A DNA stretch of 64,000 nucleotides from sequence record OX638288. One strand, written 5' to 3'. The stretch's first letter is position 1. Every line of letters begins with the position of its first letter. Positions 36,279 through 51,644 of this stretch are shown here, one piece after another. The notes under the pieces are model-generated. The model was not told the DNA's origin, searched no databases, and worked only from the letters and a program-made list of their open reading frames with translations. The DNA is from Escherichia phage UP19. Made by a program: the position numbers and the translations under genes.

Positions 36279-36298
36279 AGGGACTTCGGTCCCTTTTT
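36279..36298 (+). terminator. rho-independent terminator
   Basis: AGGGAC-TTCG-GTCCCT followed by TTTTT. Confidence 0.7.
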
Positions 36299-36326
36299 GG
36301 AGTATAATGATTCATCAACAAACAAA

Positions 36327-36350
36327 AGACAATCACTCGTCTATAAAGGA
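36327..36350 (+). promoter_or_regulatory. candidate gp43 translational operator hairpin abutting SD
   Basis: AGAC-AATCACTC-GTCT; 8-nt loop resembles the T4 gene 43 operator loop as recalled; immediately 5' of AAGGA SD. Confidence 0.45.
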
Positions 36351-36356
36351 AATGAA

Positions 36357-39068
36357 ATGCAAGAATTCTATTTGACAGTCGAACAAATCGGTGATAATAT
36401 TCTCGAACGTTACATCGATAAAAATGGTAACGAACGTAGTCGTGAAGTTCCTTACAAGCCTACAATGTTTATGCACGCTAACCCAGAGCAAGCCGTAAAA
36501 TATATTGACATCTACGGTAAGGGTTGTGTTAAGAAAGAATTCGATTCAATGCGCGATGCTTCTCAGTGGATGAAGCGCATGGACGATATGGGTCTCGAAG
36601 CCCTTGGTATGGACGACTATAAATTAGCCTATTTGTCTGATACCTATCGTAAAGAAATCAAGTATGATTCTTCCAAGATTCGTATTGCAAACTTCGACAT
36701 CGAGGTAACATCCCCTGATGGATTCCCTGAACCTGCCCAGGCTAAACATCCTATCGATGCCATTACTCACTACGACTCGATTGATGATAAATTCTATGTA
36801 TTTGACCTTTTAGTTTCACCTTATGGTACGGTCGAAGAGTGGTCGATTAAAATCGCTGAGAAACTCCAAGACGAAGGTGGCGACGAAGTTCCACAAGAAA
36901 TCATTGACAAAATCGTTTATCTTCCGTTTAATTCTGAAGAAGAAATGATGCTTGAGTATCTGAATTTCTGGCAACAGAAAACTCCTGTGATTTTGACTGG
37001 ATGGAACGTTGAATCATTTGACGTGCCATACGTTTATAACCGTCTGAAAAATCTGTTTGGTGAGAACACTGCTAAGCGATTAAGCCCACATCGTAAGACT
37101 CGTGTTAAAGTTATCGAGAATATGTACGGTGTTCGCGAAATTATTACACTGTTCGGTATCTCTGTTCTGGATTATATCGACCTTTATAAAAAATTCAGCT
37201 TTACTAACCAGCCTTCTTATTCTCTGGATTATGTTTCTGAATATGAATTGAAAGTAGGTAAGTTGAAATATGATGGTCCTATCTCCAAGTTACGTGAGAC
37301 GAACCACCAACGATATATTTCCTATAACATTATCGACGTATATCGTGTTGTGCAGATTGATATGAAACGCCAGTTCATTCTTCTTAGTCTGGACATGGGT
37401 TACTATGCCAAGATGCAGATTCAGTCGGTGTTCAGTCCAATTAAGACTTGGGACGCTATTATCTTTAATAGCCTTAAAGAACAGGGTAAAGTTATTCCTC
37501 AGGCCAAATCGCATGCGGTTCAACCTTATCCAGGTGCTTTCGTTAAGGAACCTATTCCTAACGCGTACAAATATGTAATGAGTTTCGACCTTACATCTCT
37601 GTACCCGAGTATCATTCGACAAGTGAATATAAGCCCAGAGACCATCGCAGGGACATTCGCCAACGCACCGATACATGAATATATTGCCGGAACTGCTCCG
37701 CGTCCTAGCGACACCTACAGTTGCTCTCCTAACGGCATGATGTACTATAAAGACCGTGATGGTGTGATTCCTACAGAAATCACGAAGGTGTTCTTACAGC
37801 GTAAAGAACATAAAGGTTATATGCTTGCAGCTCAACGTAATGGTGAGTTAATTAAAGAAGCATTAGAAAATCCTAATCTGTCTGTTGATAGTCCACTGGA
37901 TATCGATTATCGTTTCGACTTCTCTGACGAAATCAAAGCTCAGATTAAAAAATTGTCAGCATCTTCTTTAAAAGAAATGTTGTTCAAAGCCGAACGTACT
38001 GAAGTCGCAGGTATGACTGCTCAGATTAACCGTAAGTTGCTTATCAACTCCCTTTATGGTGCACTTGGTAACGTATGGTTCCGTTACTATGACCTCAGGA
38101 ACGCAACTGCAATCACATTGTTTGGTCAAATGGCCCTCCAATGGATTGAACGTAAGGTTAACGAATATCTGAATGGCGTGTGCAAGACTGAAAACCAGAA
38201 GTTCGTGCTCTATGGTGATACTGACTCCATTTATGTTAAGGCTGACGCAATCATCAATAAAGTAGGCGAAGACAAATTCCGTGATACTAACCACTGGGTT
38301 GACTTCTTAGATAAATTTGCACGTGAACGTATGGAACCGGCTATTGATGCAGGCTTCCGTGAGATGTGCGAATACATGAACAACAAACAGCACTTGATGT
38401 TCATGGACCGAGAAGCTATCGCTGGTCCTCCGCTTGGTTCTAAAGGTCTTGGTGGATTCTGGACAGGCAAGAAACGTTATGCACTGAACGTTTGGGACAT
38501 GGAAGGTACTCGTTATGCCGAACCACACTTGAAAATCATGGGTCTCGAAACTCAGAAATCAAGTACGCCTAAAGCGGTTCAGAAAGCACTGAAAGAATGT
38601 ATCCGTCGTATGCTTCAAGAAGGCGAGGCTTCTTTGCAAGAATATTTCAAACAGTTTAATAAGGAATTTAACGAATTAGACTATGTAAGCATTGCTGCAG
38701 TATCCAGTGCTAACAACATCGAGAAATATAATGAAGGCGGATTCCCTGGTTCTAAATGCCCGTACCACATCAAAGGTTGCTTAGCTTACATGCGTGCTTC
38801 TGCTGGTGATTTGACTATGCCTCGTATCGTTGATGGTGAAAAGGTATATGTACTGCCACTTAAAGAAGGCAACCCGTTCGGTGAAGCTTGTATGGCGTGG
38901 CCGTCAGGTATTGAACTTCCGATTCAGATTCGTGACCAAGTCCTCCGTTGGATGGACTACAACGTACTGTTCCAAAAGACCTTTATCAAACCTCTAACCG
39001 GTTTTACTGAGTCTGCTAAAATCGACTACGAGAAAAAAGCAACATTATTTGACATGTTTGACTTTTAA
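36357..39068 (+). CDS. 43: DNA polymerase gp43 (family B), 903 aa
   Basis: ORF track 36297..39068 (TTG alt start) trimmed to ATG; strong similarity to T4/RB69 gp43 as recalled, closer to RB69-type. Confidence 0.97.
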   Translation: MQEFYLTVEQIGDNILERYIDKNGNERSREVPYKPTMFMHANPEQAVKYIDIYGKGCVKKEFDSMRDASQWMKRMDDMGLEALGMDDYKLAYLSDTYRKEIKYDSSKIRIANFDIEVTSPDGFPEPAQAKHPIDAITHYDSIDDKFYVFDLLVSPYGTVEEWSIKIAEKLQDEGGDEVPQEIIDKIVYLPFNSEEEMMLEYLNFWQQKTPVILTGWNVESFDVPYVYNRLKNLFGENTAKRLSPHRKTRVKVIENMYGVREIITLFGISVLDYIDLYKKFSFTNQPSYSLDYVSEYELKVGKLKYDGPISKLRETNHQRYISYNIIDVYRVVQIDMKRQFILLSLDMGYYAKMQIQSVFSPIKTWDAIIFNSLKEQGKVIPQAKSHAVQPYPGAFVKEPIPNAYKYVMSFDLTSLYPSIIRQVNISPETIAGTFANAPIHEYIAGTAPRPSDTYSCSPNGMMYYKDRDGVIPTEITKVFLQRKEHKGYMLAAQRNGELIKEALENPNLSVDSPLDIDYRFDFSDEIKAQIKKLSASSLKEMLFKAERTEVAGMTAQINRKLLINSLYGALGNVWFRYYDLRNATAITLFGQMALQWIERKVNEYLNGVCKTENQKFVLYGDTDSIYVKADAIINKVGEDKFRDTNHWVDFLDKFARERMEPAIDAGFREMCEYMNNKQHLMFMDREAIAGPPLGSKGLGGFWTGKKRYALNVWDMEGTRYAEPHLKIMGLETQKSSTPKAVQKALKECIRRMLQEGEASLQEYFKQFNKEFNELDYVSIAAVSSANNIEKYNEGGFPGSKCPYHIKGCLAYMRASAGDLTMPRIVDGEKVYVLPLKEGNPFGEACMAWPSGIELPIQIRDQVLRWMDYNVLFQKTFIKPLTGFTESAKIDYEKKATLFDMFDF

Positions 39069-39070
39069 GT

Positions 39071-39100
39071 GTTTACATACCACATGGAACGTGGTAGTAT
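39071..39100 (+). promoter_or_regulatory. T4-type early promoter (GTTTAC 39071-39076, TAGTAT 39095-39100) with hairpin TACCAC/GTGGTA in spacer
   Basis: 18-nt spacer; hairpin 39078-39096. Confidence 0.5.
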
Positions 39101-39130
39101 CCTTCCTATCAACTACATGAGGAAATTATA

Positions 39131-39367
39131 ATGGAAGCTTTAATCGTTAGTGCTGGTGTTTTAGGATTCGGTTCTCTGGTTATTATGTTCATTGGTTACT
39201 TTTTACCATGGATTCTGGCCCTTCTGCGAGGCACTCGTAGCAATGTTGGAATCTTCTTCCTTAATCTCCTGTTAGGGTGGACGATGATTGGTTGGGTAGT
39301 GGCTTTAATCTGGGCTATCGTCGCTGAACGTAAATCAAACGCACAAATCATTATCGTTAAACAATGA
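39131..39367 (+). CDS. imm: small two-helix membrane protein, Imm-like by position (78 aa)
   Basis: position immediately downstream of gene 43; two transmembrane segments. Confidence 0.5.
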   Translation: MEALIVSAGVLGFGSLVIMFIGYFLPWILALLRGTRSNVGIFFLNLLLGWTMIGWVVALIWAIVAERKSNAQIIIVKQ

Positions 39368-39501
39368 AGATAATTATTTTATTTCTTATAATGGCTGCCT
39401 TTACCGTTTATTGGGCAGTGGCAATTCCTCCAATGATTCCAACATTAATCATGGGATGGATTATTCTTATAGCACAAATTAAGTATAACTGTTTTAATTG
39501 A
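39364..39501 (+). CDS. small hydrophobic protein (45 aa), below ORF-track cutoff
   Basis: translated by eye; ATGA overlap with imm-like stop. Confidence 0.4.
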   Translation: MKIIILFLIMAAFTVYWAVAIPPMIPTLIMGWIILIAQIKYNCFN

Positions 39502-39508
39502 GGATATT

Positions 39509-40009
39509 ATGAAAAAGTTAATTATCGCAATGAGTATGCTCCTATCAGGTTGCGCAGTCCAATACGGTGATGCAGTTTCTGCTGATGAAGTTGGTAAAGC
39601 TCGTATCGCAGCTGAACAGAAACAATTCGACGGCGAAATGAAATTCCGTGCCGGTTCTGGACTTGTGTACACCCGAGCTAATAATCAATGTGGTAATAAC
39701 TGTGCAAAATATGCTCAAGGGGAAATCGAATTCCAACGTGAACAAGAGTCTAAGCGTGAAGCGGTACTAGCCAAACACCAGGCAGAAATGAAGCGCCAAG
39801 ATGATTTGTACAAAAAGCAGAAACTGTATGCCATGTGTGTAAACCATATCAATCTACAGATTTCTGTCCACGAGGCTCGTTATTACGAAATGCTCGAAAC
39901 CGAGAGCTTCGATAAGGCTCGTGATTATAAGAAACAAATCAACAAGCTTAAGACCAAAGTGCCTGCTGCAGTAGAACAGTGCATGGAATACGGTAAAGAT
40001 AAGATTTAA
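39509..40009 (+). CDS. lipoprotein (166 aa)
   Basis: signal peptide with lipobox LSGC; charged coiled-coil-like C-terminal half. Confidence 0.6.
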   Translation: MKKLIIAMSMLLSGCAVQYGDAVSADEVGKARIAAEQKQFDGEMKFRAGSGLVYTRANNQCGNNCAKYAQGEIEFQREQESKREAVLAKHQAEMKRQDDLYKKQKLYAMCVNHINLQISVHEARYYEMLETESFDKARDYKKQINKLKTKVPAAVEQCMEYGKDKI

Positions 40010-40069
40010 GCAATAGAAATTTATTAAAAATAGTGTATAATGTACCTACATTCACTTGAGGAACAGATA

Positions 40070-41743
40070 ATGAAAAAGGTTGTTATTTTAGGCGCAGGTC
40101 TTGGCTCACGGTTGTATCCAATTACTAACGAAATCCCAAAGGTATTGGTTAACTACAAACAACATACGGTATTAAAACATTTGTATGATTTGTATAGTAA
40201 CCAATCAGATGAAATTATTCTGGTTATTCACAGCAAATTTAACGACCTCGTTAAAGGCTATATTAAATCCATTAACATGATTACTGGTGATAAGCCTAAA
40301 TTCACTATTCGTAACGTTGATGTTGCTAATGGTTCAGCTCATGCTATCGATTGCATTGCCGAAGATATCATTGGCCATAATGTCCTGTTTAACTGGTGTG
40401 ACATCATTCCTATCGGTCATAAAGTTGAATGGGGTAACGACTATTGTTATACCTATGGAACTGACTGTCGCTTTACATTTGAAGAACCGTACTTACGTGA
40501 AATTGGTACCGGTGGCGGTGTAGTTGGTTTGTATCAGGTAGCCAATTGGACAGGTTTCGACCGTTCTAATTATGGCGAAGACCTTGCTGATAACCTGGAT
40601 TCAATGGTCTATTTGACTGAACGTAAACTGGATTTTGTAGTTGATGTCGGTGACAAATTGAAACTTGCCAAGGCCCATGAAGATTCTGAAATTAACCGTG
40701 AATTTAATAAATTAGAGTTCACCGAGAATCTGGCTATTAAAGTACCAACTAACGAATTAGGTAAAGAAATTCAATCTAAAGAAATCAATTGGTATAATTC
40801 TATTGATTCTGAATTCGTTCCTAGCATTGTAGACTTTTCTCCAGGCGAATTCATTAAAATGGAACGTATCTTTGGTCGTACCATGGCAGATGCCTACCGG
40901 TTTATGTCCAAAGAAACTAAAGTCCTCATGGTTTATAAGGTCATTAGTGCATTACGTTCATTCGGTGGAACTATCGATAATCCGTCCGATGAGCAATGGT
41001 ATTCCGATGTTAAGAAAGAAGTGTTGGACAAGGTCCTTATTCGTAATGCTTCTATTGCCGGATTGATTGAAGGCTTTGCTCCACAGGGCATTACCCATGT
41101 TAACGATTTCAAAGTAGGCGACCCCGAAAAACTTCTCCGCCATGCACTAGAAATTCTGTCTGAACATAAAGAACCGTACCAACTTATTCATGGCGACCCG
41201 CACTACAGTAATATTATGCTGTCGGACGAAGGTGATATTAAAATCATCGACCCACGTGGTTATTTCGGTAATAGTTCTAAAGGCCCTGCGATTTATGATG
41301 AAGCTAAGGTGCTTTATTCTATCGATGGCTATGACAAATTTAACTCAGACCCTCTATGGGGTGGATTAACTCGTAACGGAACTCGTGTATTCGTTGATAT
41401 CGAAAAGGTTATGCCTTTAGACGATATTCCTATGTGCACATTTAAGCACAAGCTCTGGATTGCTGTTATTTGGATGGCGCTGGCAGGTTACTTTAAGAAT
41501 AACCCTCTGAAAGCTCTGGGTGCTTATTATAACGGTTTGTATCAACTGAGTGTGCTGCTGAAGCGGCATCCTCGTAAGCGTAAGCTTATTACTGGTGAAT
41601 TTGTCGATGAAGTTCGTGACCCTATCACGGCTCAAATTATTACTCGTTGTCCTGATAAGTGGGTTTTGCTTGACCAGGAAACTGGTGTAAAATATAAACC
41701 TACAGGTTCTACTGAGCTCCACAAACAATGGAAGAAAATTTAA
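40070..41743 (+). CDS. bifunctional nucleotidyltransferase/kinase-like protein (557 aa)
   Basis: ORF track 40040..41743 trimmed; N-terminal ILGAGLGSRLYPITNEIPKVLV; C-terminal HGDPHYSNIM and IIDPRG. Confidence 0.75.
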   Translation: MKKVVILGAGLGSRLYPITNEIPKVLVNYKQHTVLKHLYDLYSNQSDEIILVIHSKFNDLVKGYIKSINMITGDKPKFTIRNVDVANGSAHAIDCIAEDIIGHNVLFNWCDIIPIGHKVEWGNDYCYTYGTDCRFTFEEPYLREIGTGGGVVGLYQVANWTGFDRSNYGEDLADNLDSMVYLTERKLDFVVDVGDKLKLAKAHEDSEINREFNKLEFTENLAIKVPTNELGKEIQSKEINWYNSIDSEFVPSIVDFSPGEFIKMERIFGRTMADAYRFMSKETKVLMVYKVISALRSFGGTIDNPSDEQWYSDVKKEVLDKVLIRNASIAGLIEGFAPQGITHVNDFKVGDPEKLLRHALEILSEHKEPYQLIHGDPHYSNIMLSDEGDIKIIDPRGYFGNSSKGPAIYDEAKVLYSIDGYDKFNSDPLWGGLTRNGTRVFVDIEKVMPLDDIPMCTFKHKLWIAVIWMALAGYFKNNPLKALGAYYNGLYQLSVLLKRHPRKRKLITGEFVDEVRDPITAQIITRCPDKWVLLDQETGVKYKPTGSTELHKQWKKI

Positions 41744-42126
41744 TGTCGCATCGAGTAGAAAATAAGCCACATTTATGTTTTGATATCGATAACACAATCA
41801 CGATTTGGAACCATGACCGTGATTATGAGAACTTTAAACCGGACACCGAAATGGTGTCCATGATTAATAAGCTTTATGATGAAGGGTACGAGATTACATT
41901 ATTCACTGCCCGTGGCATGACTTCATGTGGCCCAGGTCGAATCTTGGTTGAAGTAGTTCCTGCATTGGTTAAGAACCTTGAAAAGATTGGATTGAAATAT
42001 CATAATCTGCTTACGCATAAGCCGAGTTATACTTTTATCATCGATGACCGAGCAATCCGTCCTGACCACTTTAAAGAAATGGTTCGTGAAGGAACTCTTG
42101 ATAGTTATAAGGCCTATCATCCATGA
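41743..42126 (+). CDS. HAD-superfamily phosphatase-like protein (127 aa)
   Basis: ORF track 41728..42126 trimmed to TAATG-overlap ATG; HAD motif I FDIDNTIT. Confidence 0.65.
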   Translation: MSHRVENKPHLCFDIDNTITIWNHDRDYENFKPDTEMVSMINKLYDEGYEITLFTARGMTSCGPGRILVEVVPALVKNLEKIGLKYHNLLTHKPSYTFIIDDRAIRPDHFKEMVREGTLDSYKAYHP

Positions 42127-42659
42127 ATCCAAAAATCATTGTTATAGACGGCCCGGATAATTCCGGGAAGTCCACTTTAATTAAAAATCTGTTATCCAAT
42201 AAGAAATACCGCCTTATTGATTTTCCTAAAAAGATTAATGGCAAGTGTATTTCATTAGGAACTGATAACGATAAGGCTTTAGTTGAAACTCTGTATAAGT
42301 TTTTAGACCCTAATTTCGTTTATATCCTTGACCGTGGTTATCCAAGTAATATTGTTTACTCAGGATTCCTTCGTGGTGAAATGGACCCTTATGTAGAACT
42401 GGAAGATTGGAAAGGGTTTAAATCCGAATTTAACGTTATCGAGGTTATTTTAACTCGCAATCCATTAGACGAAGACTTCGAAGACGACCTTATTAAATTA
42501 ACCAAAGATGAGTTCAACCTAACTATCCGGCAATACGAAACATGTTTTGAAAACGTGTTTAAAATCTTAAATCATGACGGCCATAATAATTTGCTTAATG
42601 TTGATATGGTAGAATTAAAACGTCTGAACGAATATATTGAAAATAAGGTGAATAAATGA
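42123..42659 (+). CDS. P-loop (d)NMP-kinase-like protein (178 aa)
   Basis: Walker A IVIDGPDNSGKST resembles thymidylate/deoxynucleotide kinase family. Confidence 0.65.
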   Translation: MNPKIIVIDGPDNSGKSTLIKNLLSNKKYRLIDFPKKINGKCISLGTDNDKALVETLYKFLDPNFVYILDRGYPSNIVYSGFLRGEMDPYVELEDWKGFKSEFNVIEVILTRNPLDEDFEDDLIKLTKDEFNLTIRQYETCFENVFKILNHDGHNNLLNVDMVELKRLNEYIENKVNK

Positions 42660-43354
42660 AACACATTACCGCTGTTAGTTTTGAAAATGCATTTAAACAA
42701 ATGAACGAAGAAATCCTGGAAGCTCCACAGTTTGCAGTTGATTCTCGTATCGGACGTTGTTATGAAATTGGTTCTGCTTCGGTAGAAGTACTGGATGCAA
42801 GCACCTATAAATTCACCGACCCACGTATCAATCGTATTAGTTATGAATATGCCGAATCCTTTTGGAAATTTATGATTTCTGGTGGTACTGACGCTGCCGA
42901 AGCATTTAAGGAATACCCTAATGTTGCTAAGTTCATTGATAAGCCGAAAAGTGATGTATTGCCTGCAAACTTCAACACTTTCTATGGACCTCGAATTGTG
43001 GCCCAACTCCCAGCCCTACTTAAAGAGCTTAAAGAAAAGGCTAACTCGCGAAGAGTTGTGTTCCAGATTCTCCAAGAACAAGACCAAGCCCTCCTTGATT
43101 CTGACGAATCCTTAGAATATCCTTGCACCGATTCGGTAACGTATTATATTCGTGACGGACGTTTGTATGCACACACCCATATGCGTTCACAAAACTGCGC
43201 CGTTGTTATGCAGCTGGATTTCTATCTGCAGGGTAAACTGATGGCATTTATTGCTGAACAGTGTGGTGTCGGTTTAGGTACATATTCCCACACCATGGTA
43301 AGTGCACACGTGTTTGAACGTGATTTTGACTACGTCCGAGGTTTCCTGAAATGA
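42656..43354 (+). CDS. 42: thymidylate-synthase-fold pyrimidine hydroxymethylase (gene 42 position), divergent from T4 gp42 (232 aa)
   Basis: NSRRVVFQI, EYPCTDSVTYYIRDGRLYAHTHMRSQNCA and SAHVFERDF align with T4 gp42 motifs as recalled. Confidence 0.7.
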   Translation: MKHITAVSFENAFKQMNEEILEAPQFAVDSRIGRCYEIGSASVEVLDASTYKFTDPRINRISYEYAESFWKFMISGGTDAAEAFKEYPNVAKFIDKPKSDVLPANFNTFYGPRIVAQLPALLKELKEKANSRRVVFQILQEQDQALLDSDESLEYPCTDSVTYYIRDGRLYAHTHMRSQNCAVVMQLDFYLQGKLMAFIAEQCGVGLGTYSHTMVSAHVFERDFDYVRGFLK

Positions 43355-44244
43355 GTTTGTTTATCGTTCCTATTTTCAGTATGCGTAGTTACGAAACAGG
43401 TGAATATGCCGTCCTTAAGGACGGCAATTTTCAACTCCATTTAAATCGTGCTCGTCCAGGTGATTATCTGGCTTATCCTAGAAATTCGAGCGATATCAAA
43501 GAATGCATTGAATTATTCCCAGAACTGAATTTCGTACCACTTTGGTATAAAGAAAATGCTTATGAAACCCGTAAACATTTCTGGTCTGAAAATGAGTTTG
43601 TAGTCGATTCACTAATCGAATACTATGATTGCTCAGGACTGGTGACCGATATCACCGGTTATGATGGTGCTCATACTGTACAATTCAACTTTAATATCAC
43701 AATGGACCCTGAAGTTCCTCGTTATTATATCGACGAGTTCATTGATATTGATGTGGCTTCAGTTGAACGTTCACTTTATACTACAGTCTTGAATCAATGC
43801 CAGAAAGACGTCCTGGTGTCACGAGGTGCATCCTCTGATAAGATTTTTGTAGACCAAAAGGTAATTAATCCTGCAGTAATTGAGCGTTACTCTGAAGGTC
43901 TAGCGCCTATTAAAATTGATGGTATTTTCCATCCATTCCGTATTTCGGATAAGTGTTATCAATTCGAAAGAGTTGTAGACCAAGCTGCCGCTGAAGGTGC
44001 TCGTCTTTATATCACCGACCCTAATGATTCATTTAAGCGCGAAGACTATCGTCCTGATGTAGAGATTATTAAATTCAAACCGAGTAAGGTTGAATATTAT
44101 CAAATTCTGAAATCAAGACCACATATCATTTATCATGAGAACCCAGGTTTAGTATTCCATCCTGGTCTGGCTGAATTCATTTATTTTGGTGCCAATATTC
44201 ATTCTGAATACGAAATGCCACGTTATGAGGACGTAGTATGCTAG
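43351..44244 (+). CDS. hypothetical protein in beta-glucosyltransferase position; candidate DNA-modifying transferase (297 aa)
   Basis: ORF track; positional replacement of T4 beta-gt between 42 and uvsX; no recognisable similarity to T4 beta-gt as recalled. Confidence 0.6.
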   Translation: MSLFIVPIFSMRSYETGEYAVLKDGNFQLHLNRARPGDYLAYPRNSSDIKECIELFPELNFVPLWYKENAYETRKHFWSENEFVVDSLIEYYDCSGLVTDITGYDGAHTVQFNFNITMDPEVPRYYIDEFIDIDVASVERSLYTTVLNQCQKDVLVSRGASSDKIFVDQKVINPAVIERYSEGLAPIKIDGIFHPFRISDKCYQFERVVDQAAAEGARLYITDPNDSFKREDYRPDVEIIKFKPSKVEYYQILKSRPHIIYHENPGLVFHPGLAEFIYFGANIHSEYEMPRYEDVVC

Positions 44245-44369
44245 GTCCTCTATTGCTTTTTATAGGTTTGTTATTATTCTCTTTCGGAGGCTTGCTATTA
44301 TTAGTGTGGCTCGAGAAACGAGAAGTTCGGAAGATAGTCGATAAGGCTATCAACCGAGGAATTAAGTAA
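44238..44369 (+). CDS. small hydrophobic protein (43 aa), below ORF-track cutoff
   Basis: translated by eye; overlaps preceding stop. Confidence 0.3.
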   Translation: MLGPLLLFIGLLLFSFGGLLLLVWLEKREVRKIVDKAINRGIK

Positions 44370-44446
44370 TGCTGTAGCTGTGAAGTGATATAATTACCCT
44401 ATCTTAAAACGTGAGAAAAATATAATGATGCCTATGGAAAAATATA

Positions 44447-45619
44447 ATGTCTGATTTAAAATCCCGTTTGATTAAAGCTTCTACTTCTAAAATGACTGCC
44501 GACCTGACCAAATCTAAATTGTTTAATGGTCGTGACGAAGTTCCTACTCGTATTCCTATGCTTAATATTGCATTGGGTGGTGCGTTGAATGCAGGCTTAC
44601 AATCAGGTTTGACAATCTTTGCTGCACCGTCTAAACACTTTAAAACGTTGTTTGGATTAACTATGGTTGCGGCATATATGAAGAAATATCCAGACGCAAT
44701 TTGCTTGTTCTATGACTCTGAGTTCGGTGCTTCAGAATCTTATTTCCGTTCAATGGGTGTTGACCTGGAACGTGTGGTTCATACGCCAATCCAGTCAGTC
44801 GAACAACTGAAGGTTGACATGACCAACCAATTAGAAGAAATTACTCGTGGTGAAAAGGTTATTATCTTTATCGACTCCATCGGTAACACTGCTTCTAAGA
44901 AAGAAACCGAAGATGCTTTGAACGAGAAAGTTGTAGGTGATATGACTCGTGCTAAGTCTCTGAAATCTCTGTTCCGTATCGTAACACCTTATCTGACTAT
45001 CAAGGATATTCCTTGCGTAGCAATTAACCATACGGCTATGGAAATTGGTGGAATGTATCCTAAAGAGATTATGGGTGGTGGTACTGGTATTCTGTACTCT
45101 GCTTCTACCGTATTCTTTATCTCTAAACGTCAGGTTAAAGATGGTACCGAGCTCACTGGTTATGACTTCACCCTGAAGGCCGAAAAATCTCGTACTGTTA
45201 AAGAGAAATCAACGTTCCCAATTACTGTGAACTTTGAAGGTGGTATCGACCCGTTTAGTGGTCTGCTCGAAATGGCTACTGATATTGGCTTTGTCGTGAA
45301 ACCTAAAGCTGGTTGGTATAATCGTGCATTCCTTGACGAAACCACGGGTGAAATGGTTCAAGAAGAAAAATCATGGCGTGCTAAAGCTACCGATTGTGTC
45401 GAGTTCTGGGGACCACTGTTTAAACATGCTCCATTCCGTGAAGCAATCGAGAATAAGTATAAGCTCGGTGCAATTAATTCTATTAAAGAAGTCGATGATG
45501 CAGTGAACGACCTTATTAACTCTCGTGTCTCTAAGAACGTTGCAGTTAAATTGAGCGGTGACACTCAAAGCGCTGCTGATATCGAAAACGATTTAGAAGA
45601 GATGGATTTAGATGACTGA
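44447..45619 (+). CDS. uvsX: recombinase UvsX (RecA-like), 390 aa
   Basis: MSDLKSRLIKASTSK...FAAPSKHFKT matches T4 UvsX as recalled. Confidence 0.95.
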   Translation: MSDLKSRLIKASTSKMTADLTKSKLFNGRDEVPTRIPMLNIALGGALNAGLQSGLTIFAAPSKHFKTLFGLTMVAAYMKKYPDAICLFYDSEFGASESYFRSMGVDLERVVHTPIQSVEQLKVDMTNQLEEITRGEKVIIFIDSIGNTASKKETEDALNEKVVGDMTRAKSLKSLFRIVTPYLTIKDIPCVAINHTAMEIGGMYPKEIMGGGTGILYSASTVFFISKRQVKDGTELTGYDFTLKAEKSRTVKEKSTFPITVNFEGGIDPFSGLLEMATDIGFVVKPKAGWYNRAFLDETTGEMVQEEKSWRAKATDCVEFWGPLFKHAPFREAIENKYKLGAINSIKEVDDAVNDLINSRVSKNVAVKLSGDTQSAADIENDLEEMDLDD

Positions 45620-51122: not shown

Positions 51123-51644
51123 ATGGCTCATTTTAATGAATGTTCTCAACTTATTGCCGGTGCCGATAAAGCTGAAGAAGCTTATTTTAATGCTCTGATT
51201 CACGAAGATAAAGACCCTCTACAGGTTATGCTTGATATGCAGAAATCTTTGCAGGTTCGTTTAGCTAAAGATAAGCCTGAATATAATCGTCATCCTGATG
51301 ATTTGGCCACTGCGGGTGAAGTTGTCGATTGGCTTCGCAACCAGAAAGATTATATTGATGACGAATTCCGTGAACTTCTGACTTCTCTTGGTGGTATGAG
51401 CAATGGTGAAAAAGATGCATCTGCAGTATGGAAGCCTTGGAAAGCTCAACATGCTGAACGTCGTGAAACCCTGATTAACGATTTGTCTCCTGAAGACCAG
51501 CTCGAAATTAAATTCGAAATGATTGATATTCTGCACTTTGTTCTGAATATGTTCCAGGGTCTTGGACTGACCGCTGAAGAAATCTTTAAACTGTATTACC
51601 TGAAAAATGCCGAGAACTTTGCTCGTCAAGACCGAGGTTATTAA
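51123..51644 (+). CDS. 56: dCTPase/dUTPase gp56 (173 aa)
   Basis: ORF track 51105..51644 trimmed; MAHFNEC...DPLQVMLDMQ...FRELLTSLG matches T4 gp56 as recalled. Confidence 0.9.
   Translation: MAHFNECSQLIAGADKAEEAYFNALIHEDKDPLQVMLDMQKSLQVRLAKDKPEYNRHPDDLATAGEVVDWLRNQKDYIDDEFRELLTSLGGMSNGEKDASAVWKPWKAQHAERRETLINDLSPEDQLEIKFEMIDILHFVLNMFQGLGLTAEEIFKLYYLKNAENFARQDRGY

Follow-up and report, generated by a model that had tools for sequence, protein, structure and literature searches.

The phosphatase and kinase genes of a Dhakavirus modification cluster and their predicted parts in 5-hydroxycytosine arabinosylation

Gene layout of the cluster

The window analyzed here is the whole 64,000-nucleotide stretch of DNA from Escherichia phage UP19 (sequence record OX638288), and the genes in question encode an HAD-superfamily phosphatase and a P-loop kinase that lie side by side in a putative DNA-modification cluster. 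This cluster consists of five open reading frames (ORFs) on the + strand between the genes for the gp43 DNA polymerase (36297-39068) and uvsX (44447-45619). Over the 5.4 kb compared (39000-44400), the window shares 99.6% identity with Dhakavirus IME281 and about 98% with JS98 and JS10, and by this likeness it is assigned to a Dhakavirus. The predicted products of the five genes, and of one further gene outside the cluster, are as follows.

40070..41743, + strand: AfhE-like bifunctional enzyme, a sugar-1-phosphate nucleotidyltransferase joined to a kinase of the APH/choline-kinase fold (Pfam, phrog_4098, RB69 gp52:53)
41743..42126, + strand: HAD-superfamily phosphatase, 127 amino acids (AA), AfhF / RB69 gp51 orthologue (motifs, 9IQW, 1XPJ, TIGR01689)
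42123..42659, + strand: P-loop kinase of the thymidylate-kinase fold, 178 AA, RB69 gp45 / DLP3 gp78 orthologue (profile match, predicted fold)
42656..43354, + strand: dCMP 5-hydroxylase of the thymidylate-synthase fold, or 5-hydroxy-dCMP (5hodCMP) synthase, 232 AA (9IQU/9IQC/9IR2, RB69 gp48)
43351..44244, + strand: first DNA glycosyltransferase, 297 AA, RB69 gp46:47 orthologue, 'arabinosyltransferase 1' (identity, phrog_3891)
51123..51641, + strand: gp56 dCTPase/dUTPase homologue (tblastn, 99.4% to IME281 gp56; annotated in NC_055740.1)

Four stop/start overlaps, one TAATG and three ATGA, chain the five cluster ORFs. The fusion ORF (557 or 567 AA, depending on its start) ends with the stop codon TAA at 41741-41743 and overlaps the ATG of the phosphatase ORF at 41743-41745, which in turn runs to the TGA at 42124-42126. 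The kinase ORF extends from the ATG at 42123-42125 to the TGA at 42657-42659, the ThyA-like ORF starts with the ATG at 42656 and the 297-AA ORF at 43351, each of these three overlapping its predecessor by ATGA. The original prediction had described the phosphatase and the kinase as translationally coupled members of a DNA-modification cluster. Their coordinates, lengths and overlaps are correct, and so are the coupling and the placement in such a cluster.

Identical gene boundaries are annotated in RefSeq NC_055740.1, a genome with 99.6% identity. For the phosphatase, an alternative reading of 132 AA from the ATG at 41728 exists; the start at 41743 is preferred, being the annotated one and the one that yields the overlap. 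For the fusion gene, the mechanical ORF begins at 40040, and a start at 40070 is more likely because the ATG there has a GAGGA Shine-Dalgarno sequence and the PHROG alignment begins at residue 11 of the longer reading. It is also the annotated start in IME281. A sigma-70-like site matching 10 of 12 positions precedes the fusion gene at 40014-40041. A promoter and terminator scan of 38900-44600 gave counts not above those of shuffled sequences and no convincing internal terminator, and it was not used as evidence.

Identity of the cluster

According to Lee et al. (NAR 2026, PMC13326640), phage RB69 and its relatives make arabinosylated 5-hydroxycytosine, not arabosyl-hydroxymethylcytosine, and use their thymidylate-synthase homologue as a flavin-dependent dCMP 5-hydroxylase. 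Dhakaviruses are named there among the clades bearing the syntenic cluster (PMC13326640). In phage HY126, the bifunctional AfhE acts both as arabinose-5-phosphate 1-kinase and as UDP-arabinofuranose pyrophosphorylase, and AfhF, an HAD phosphatase dependent on Mg, turns arabinofuranose-1,5-bisphosphate into arabinofuranose-1-phosphate (He et al., Nat Chem Biol 2026, via PMC13326640). All five cluster genes of the window have RB69 orthologues, with identities of 80% for the hydroxylase, 66-70% for the glycosyltransferase, 61-62% for the phosphatase, 41-44% for the fusion enzyme and 38% for the kinase. The AfhE-like fusion enzyme, the AfhF-like phosphatase and the first glycosyltransferase are all present between gp43 and uvsX. 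This orthology identifies the cluster with the published system for 5-hydroxycytosine arabinosylation and not with a hydroxymethylcytosine system. A study by Mahler from 2025 is reportedly also among the publications on 5-hydroxycytosine arabinosylation. The system has already been published, Dhakaviruses are already listed as carriers, and the finding is in this respect ordinary and largely explained.

The ThyA-like protein matches the PDB entries 9IQU, 9IQC and 9IR2 (E 2e-125, 80.1% identity), of which 9IQU is 98.7% identical to RB69 gp48. Its catalytic Cys157, its Glu154 (the equivalent of L143E) and the stretch RSQN180...QLD188 are identical to the RB69 enzyme, which bears the D169N/N177D signature (PMC13326640). 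The register of D169 and N177 to E. coli ThyA was taken from the published alignment and the identity to RB69. In a Smith-Waterman alignment against an E. coli ThyA sequence, which was self-consistent for L143, C146, D169 and N177, a 2-residue gap shifts the mapping of D169 and N177. The original prediction had taken this neighbour, its 'gene 42 homologue', for a divergent hydroxymethylase; its closeness to the verified RB69 gp48 instead identifies it as a dCMP 5-hydroxylase.

The fusion enzyme contains the Pfam domains NTP_transferase (3.4e-8) and APH (1.2e-5) and matches phrog_4098 at 4.7e-268. By analogy with AfhE, it would convert arabinose-5-phosphate to arabinofuranose-1,5-bisphosphate and arabinofuranose-1-phosphate plus UTP to UDP-arabinofuranose. 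The glycosyltransferase matches phrog_3891 at 3e-159 and is 24% identical over 271 AA (E 2e-9) to the product of the gene that follows the hydroxylase gene in Rhizobium phage AF3.

No tblastn match to the RB69 gp55 isomerase was found in the window or anywhere in IME281, and a U32-like gene and a second arabinosyltransferase were likewise not found in the IME281 genome. The missing isomerase suggests that arabinose-5-phosphate is supplied by the host, and the missing second transferase suggests mono-arabinosylation in Dhakavirus. Dhakavirus would thus carry a minimal five-gene version of the system that depends on host arabinose-5-phosphate.

The HAD phosphatase

The phosphatase contains all four HAD motifs, namely D14-I-D16-N-T18 as motif I, T55 (FTAR) as motif II, K93 (HKP) as motif III and D101-D102 (IIDD) as motif IV, and all these residues align with identical residues in the PDB entry 9IQW. 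The alignment to 9IQW (E 7e-54) covers 125 AA without gaps at 62.4% identity, and 9IQW is 99.2% identical to RB69 gp51. Further matches are 1XPJ (4e-12), phrog_1238 (5e-41) and TIGR01689 (1e-14). RB69 gp51 is the counterpart of AfhF, and the 99% identity to gp51 together with the neighbouring PDB codes indicates that 9IQW is AfhF. Because of the HAD motifs, the identity to 9IQW and gp51, and the position after the fusion gene, the phosphatase very probably removes the 5-phosphate of arabinofuranose-1,5-bisphosphate, presumably in a Mg-dependent reaction. The suggestion in the original prediction that it trims a phosphorylated intermediate therefore stands for the AfhF/gp51 orthologue, with the amendment that the intermediate would be a sugar bisphosphate and not a nucleotide.

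With AfhF of HY126 and RB69 gp51, the protein shares its length class, 62% identity, the HAD motifs and the position after the bifunctional gene. It differs from them in 38% of its residues, in a partner fusion enzyme that is 41-44% identical and in the lack of an isomerase in the window. A more distant likeness exists to GmhB and to EcbF/BcbF of TIGR01689, which are small HAD proteins that remove the distal phosphate of a sugar bisphosphate or phosphosugar near the step of nucleotide activation. The analogy to GmhB, a heptose-1,7-bisphosphate phosphatase, was drawn by Lee et al. (PMC13326640). The TIGR01689 proteins act on another sugar in another pathway, and membership of the window protein in this curated subfamily was rejected, its score of 54.5 bits lying below the cut-off of 162.

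Mis-annotations of these proteins recur in NC_055740.1 and other RefSeq phage records. NC_055740.1 calls the phosphatase a 'phosphoheptose isomerase', which is a mis-annotation, and the kinase a 'thymidylate kinase'. Elsewhere, AfhF-like HAD proteins are labelled 'capsule biosynthesis protein', and the hydroxylase appears as 'thymidylate synthase' or 'dCMP hydroxymethylase'.

Fold and motifs of the kinase

The kinase belongs to phrog_761. While a simpler homologue search gave nine close relatives, an exhaustive profile search found 473. The AlphaFold model, built from a 63-sequence alignment, reached a predicted local distance difference test (pLDDT) value of 93.9, and a search with the family profile gave matches to YorR (9e-18) and to thymidylate kinases (4e-12 to 1e-10), in which the motifs GxDxxGK[ST], FPx[RK] and DRxxxSxxxY align in register. 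The Walker A motif of the window protein, G10-P-D12-N-S-G15-K16-S-T, aligns with the thymidylate-kinase motif EGxDxxGKTT, and Asp12 is in register with the acidic P-loop residue of these enzymes. G10, D12 and K16 do not vary among 46 homologues and are at least 90% conserved among 63. The segment D70-R71-G-Y-P-S75-N76-I-V-Y79 aligns with DRYxxSxxAY of the yeast, vaccinia and S. aureus enzymes, and of the arginines after strand 4, only R112 is conserved in the family. The protein is, by its predicted structure and its motifs, a divergent enzyme of the thymidylate-kinase fold with an intact ATP site and a nucleoside monophosphate (NMP)-type site. The thymidylate-kinase-like P-loop assignment of the original prediction is thus sound at the level of the fold.

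With RB69 gp45 and DLP3 gp78, the kinase shares phrog_761, 38% identity and membership in the same cluster. The gp45/gp78-type protein has been described as a 'putative thymidylate kinase' (PMC8056088) and has thymidylate kinases and YorR as structural neighbours, as does the window kinase. It differs in position, since its gene follows that of glycosyltransferase 1, whereas the window kinase gene lies between those of the phosphatase and the hydroxylase.

Three other groups of kinases were considered and rejected as relatives. T4 gp1 is likewise a P-loop kinase with an analogous step, from modified dCMP to dCDP, but the window kinase has no sequence or structure similarity to it (1DEK). The 5-hydroxymethyl-deoxyuridine (5-hmdU) DNA kinases, or 5-HMUDK (M6 gp54, SP10 gp186, ViI gp67), are P-loop kinases encoded beside a thymidylate-synthase homologue that makes a pyrimidine hydroxyl handle, and some of the proteins compared are fused to or paired with DNA enzymes of the HhH fold. 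In hhalign, only the P-loop aligns with them, over 21-30 columns and with probabilities of 28-91%. The 'dnk' protein of ViI (Vi01_059c) shows no similarity to the window kinase. The database records of M6, SP10 and ViI mis-annotate their 5-hmdU DNA kinases, which are experimentally proven, as 'terminase small subunit' (L008 16686-17249, L009 17383-19296 and L014 18204-18866, where L numbers denote the surveyed loci).

Gene order and distribution

Tblastn recovered the kinase from 343 phage records and the hydroxylase from 379. Counted by genus, the records for the two genes are nearly equal in number, as in Escherichia (176/176), Acinetobacter (57/57), Shigella (15/15) and Serratia (9/9) phages. 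Two gene orders occur. Type A, carried by Mosigvirus, Winklervirus, Lazarusvirus, Jiangsuvirus and others, has the order isomerase, fusion, phosphatase, [U32], hydroxylase, glycosyltransferase 1, kinase, [further transferases], with brackets marking optional genes. Type B, which is found in Dhakavirus, some Klebsiella phages, Proteus phage Pm5461 and Providencia phage PSTCR6, has the order fusion, phosphatase, kinase, [U32], hydroxylase, glycosyltransferase 1 and contains no isomerase. In all type B loci and most type A loci of the survey, the phosphatase gene comes immediately after the fusion gene; in a few loci (e.g. L043), an insert separates the two. The blocks [hydroxylase, transferase 1, kinase] and [isomerase, fusion, phosphatase, transferases] have exchanged places in phage Acj9. 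PSTCR6 carries two tandem kinase paralogues after the phosphatase gene (L007 4356-4916 and 5001-5600), which share 41% and 37% identity with the window protein.

The kinase gene thus moves together with the base module, and the phosphatase gene with the sugar module. Since the kinase gene mostly follows that of glycosyltransferase 1 and the blocks are swapped in Acj9, the adjacency of phosphatase and kinase in the window is a junction between modules, and not the functional pairing that the original prediction had seen in it.

A kinase-like gene also follows the hydroxylase and transferase genes in the Pootjesviridae, as AF3 gp209 (L012 10636-11277) and phiM9 gp268 (L013 2396-3007) in phages of Rhizobium and Sinorhizobium, with a gp1-like kinase gene upstream. 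These proteins were not accepted as orthologues, the hhalign match being weak (93%, E 3e-7, 87 columns). Their Walker A motif reads GKD[TS] instead of GK[ST], AR or TR stands where the family has DR, and the DFxDD motif is missing. They may be inactive or a separate lineage.

Beyond the T4-like phages, two IMG/VR phage contigs combine a dUTPase_2-like NTPase, a kinase homologue, a ThyA-like protein and Pol III alpha in one module (L044 6633-11116, L045 6176-8467). The first of them additionally encodes a sugar nucleotidyltransferase, a protein of the UDG superfamily and a 362-AA ORF. This arrangement mirrors the T4 logic of a dNTPase, a modifying thymidylate-synthase homologue and a kinase, and the modules are probable uncharacterised pyrimidine hypermodification systems. 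In one relative (P0066), the kinase is fused to a ThyA-like domain.

Discussion

Taken together, the phosphatase and the kinase are probably both parts of an arabinosyl-5-hydroxycytosine hypermodification system, in which they would serve two different branches. In the sugar branch, arabinose-5-phosphate from the host enzymes KdsD/GutQ would be phosphorylated at C1 by the C-terminal kinase domain of the fusion enzyme to give arabinofuranose-1,5-bisphosphate. The 127-AA phosphatase would then take off the 5-phosphate, and the N-terminal nucleotidyltransferase domain of the fusion enzyme would combine the resulting arabinofuranose-1-phosphate with UTP to form UDP-arabinofuranose. In the base branch, the gp56 dCTPase would, as an accessory enzyme, remove dCTP and yield dCMP, which the thymidylate-synthase-like enzyme would convert to 5-hydroxy-dCMP. 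A monophosphate kinase would lead to the diphosphate and host Ndk to the triphosphate, the gp43 polymerase would incorporate the nucleotide, and the 297-AA glycosyltransferase would arabinosylate the 5-OH on the DNA. Published work on orthologues has demonstrated the activities of the hydroxylase, AfhE and AfhF, and the present analysis shows the orthology, the integrity of the catalytic motifs, the fold, the order of the genes and their distribution. The 178-AA kinase is placed in the base branch, where its most likely, though tentatively assigned, function is that of a kinase for 5hodCMP or pyrimidine deoxynucleoside monophosphates (dNMPs) in parallel to the gp1-type enzyme. In favour of such a role at the nucleotide level are its thymidylate-kinase-type motifs, the modules with an NTPase and a ThyA-like gene in the non-T4 phage contigs, the relative fused to a ThyA-like domain, the nearly equal numbers of kinase and hydroxylase records by genus, and a preprint that names gp45 and gp78 as dNMP kinases.

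Several findings weigh against this reading, most of them against its assignment of the kinase. The gp1-type enzyme RB69 gp159 converts 5hodCMP to 5hodCDP, and co-expression of the hydroxylase with a gp1-type kinase (RB69 gp159, DLP3 gp169) brings 5hodC into E. coli DNA (PMC13326640). If the gp1-type enzyme performs this step, the cluster kinase would be redundant, and gp45 and gp78 are listed merely as 'nucleotide kinase' with no function given (PMC13326640). A gp1 dNMP kinase, which the original prediction had left to be looked for elsewhere in the genome, is indeed encoded in the near-identical IME281 genome, outside the window. Both this gp1 gene and the activity of RB69 gp159 contradict the view that a dedicated kinase must serve a substrate beyond the reach of gp1. 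In the preprint (bioRxiv 10.1101/2025.06.16.659550), the legend of Figure 3 applies the term 'cognate dNMP kinases', meaning the proteins co-expressed, to RB69 gp45 and DLP3 gp78, while the published version names DLP3 gp169 and RB69 gp159 instead (PMC13326640). This difference may be a label correction or reflect a changed construct, and which protein served in the co-expression bears directly on the function of the kinase.

The protein itself also departs from the thymidylate kinases with which it shares the fold, the P-loop, and the DR and S...Y motifs. It is shorter, it scores far below the cut-offs of the curated models (15.6 bits against 27 for PF02223 and 18.3 against 83.25 for TIGR00041), and a hairpin with the family-specific motif D-F-x-D121-D122-L-I appears to replace the arginine-rich LID. 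The helix corresponding to the base-binding helix of thymidylate kinases showed no conserved arginine that could contact the base. Morganella phage MP1 (NC_031020.1) has an intact kinase homologue with 38% identity between gp43 and uvsX (L038 6995-7525, L055 20500-21030), and no hydroxylase, glycosyltransferase, HAD or fusion gene was found in 1-150 kb of its 163 kb. Since MP1 keeps the kinase without a hydroxylase in the 150 kb searched, the protein would not need 5-hydroxycytosine. In T4-like phages of Serratia, Acinetobacter and Pseudomonas, which represent three genera, the start codon of the kinase gene is found 13 nt inside the end of the glycosyltransferase 1 gene (L015 8998-9010, L016 8998-9010, L017 8992-9004), an overlap that hints at a role linked to the transferase or to the DNA.

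Eight metagenomic relatives of 314-357 AA (P0041, P0042, P0044, P0048, P0053, P0057, P0058 and P0060) are fused to a C-terminal MBD4-like HhH-GPD glycosylase domain. Their glycosylase half matches MBD4 at E 4e-20 and retains the GxGKYxxDS motif and the catalytic Asp, and their kinase halves align with an hhalign E-value of 5e-34. Scans of viral contigs found no genomic context for these fusions, and one metagenome scan gave two loci. At one of them, the end of the soil contig Ga0105249_10003448 (L010 70-1092), the fusion overlaps a 349-AA ORF that starts with 'MRILMIPSFSMRSY', and genes for a family-A DNA polymerase, a methyltransferase and a DnaB helicase lie downstream. The 349-AA ORF shares the N-terminal motif 'FSMRSY' with the transferase and has no PHROG or Pfam match; a 27-residue N-terminal blastp match to the window glycosyltransferase is a hint at its nature.

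On the sugar side, a search of the available literature turned up no chemical data on the DNA of Dhakavirus. The fusion enzyme of this clade is 41-46% identical to the characterised type and no phage isomerase accompanies it, and because of this divergence and this absence we can only infer which sugar is attached.

These findings lead to four other explanations, two of which concern the kinase. It is possible, but unlikely, that the kinase-fold protein works with glycosyltransferase 1 or on the DNA instead of making nucleotide precursors, be it as an NTP-dependent partner or loader for presenting or flipping 5-hydroxycytosine, as a recycler of UDP or UMP that relieves product inhibition, or as a base-directed kinase acting on the 5-OH. 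Such a role would fit the 13-nt overlap and the order hydroxylase, glycosyltransferase 1, kinase, which is kept in Mosigvirus, Winklervirus, Lazarusvirus and Jiangsuvirus and recurs with a weakly similar gene in the Pootjesviridae. A metagenome fragment (L011) likewise has the transferase followed by the kinase. The glycosylase fusions and the L010 neighbour with its transferase motif point in the same direction, but fused domains may belong to one pathway without acting on one substrate, and the transferase homology in L010 rests on 27 residues. The coexistence of gp1-like and thymidylate-kinase-like genes in Straboviridae and Pootjesviridae argues against simple redundancy. There is, on the other hand, no chemical need for phosphorylation, since UDP-arabinofuranose can be transferred directly to the 5-OH. 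Beyond the P-loop, the kinase has no specific similarity to the 5-HMUDK DNA-base kinases, it keeps the dNMP-type motifs of thymidylate kinases, and MP1 has it without transferase or hydroxylase in the 150 kb searched. MP1, with the kinase alone at the same locus and its motifs intact, would be more easily explained if the protein were a general-purpose (deoxy)nucleotide kinase for dCMP/CMP, dTMP or UMP that resides in the hypervariable region between gp43 and uvsX. The thymidylate-kinase fold, the prophage origin of the closest solved relative YorR and the two tandem paralogues of PSTCR6 agree with this explanation. It is nevertheless improbable given the near 1:1 co-occurrence with the hydroxylase by genus across the 343 phage records and the constant position of the kinase within the cluster, translationally coupled to its genes; distant kinase homologues also adjoin ThyA-like genes.

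The other two explanations concern the chemistry of the modification. A type B sugar module that activates a sugar other than D-arabinose, with a phosphatase substrate different from that of AfhF, would account for the clusters without arabinose-5-phosphate isomerase and for the type B fusion enzymes, which are 72-100% identical to each other and 41-46% to the characterised type; no published chemistry was found for this clade. E. coli, however, makes arabinose-5-phosphate for Kdo synthesis. The phosphatase and glycosyltransferase 1 are 62% and 66-70% identical to the RB69 arabinose enzymes, and Dhakaviruses have been grouped with the arabinosylating clades (PMC13326640), which makes another sugar quite unlikely. 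Even less credence is given to the model of the original prediction, in which the product is a hydroxymethylcytosine derivative, the kinase is present because gp1-type enzymes cannot act, and the phosphatase belongs to the same branch. In its favour, the ThyA-like gene holds the gene 42 position between gp43 and uvsX, its product is weakly similar to T4 dCMP hydroxymethylase (1B49, E 1.5e-4), and the kinase gene is translationally coupled to it. Against these points stand the 80% identity to a proven 5-hydroxylase with an identical active-site stretch, the gp1 gene of IME281 together with the ability of the RB69 gp1-type enzyme to handle 5hodCMP, and the place of the phosphatase in the sugar-nucleotide branch. 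Overall, the earlier interpretation is partly supported, being right about the phosphatase, wrong about the base chemistry and weak in its rationale for the kinase.

For the arabinosyl-5-hydroxycytosine assignment, the practical value is modest. Database labels such as 'phosphoheptose isomerase', 'thymidylate kinase' and 'hydroxymethylase' can be corrected, and the kinase is singled out as the cluster member without assigned biochemistry in the literature examined. Arabinosylated 5-hydroxycytosine shields phage DNA from restriction enzymes and CRISPR and alters its sensitivity to modification-dependent defences. Knowledge of the genes needed is therefore useful for choosing or engineering therapy phages, and the closest relatives, JS98 and JS10, are coliphages. 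If the kinase is a second 5hodCMP kinase, its function would be routine; if it acts with the glycosyltransferase or on the DNA, it would represent a new step in pyrimidine hypermodification.

Neighbouring open reading frames

The cluster is preceded by imm and a 166-AA ORF. The latter (39509-40009, + strand) belongs to phrog_1754, a family of unknown function, and lies between imm and the modification cluster. Its N-terminus resembles a lipoprotein signal (MKKLIIAMSMLLSGC), and no Pfam domain above threshold was found in it. Between imm and this ORF, a 36-codon ORF (39391-39498, + strand) shares 53% identity with RB69 ORF054c, which lies between the isomerase and fusion genes of RB69 and encodes a small hydrophobic peptide. 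By this identity, the two genera have both retained the short ORF at the cluster edge.

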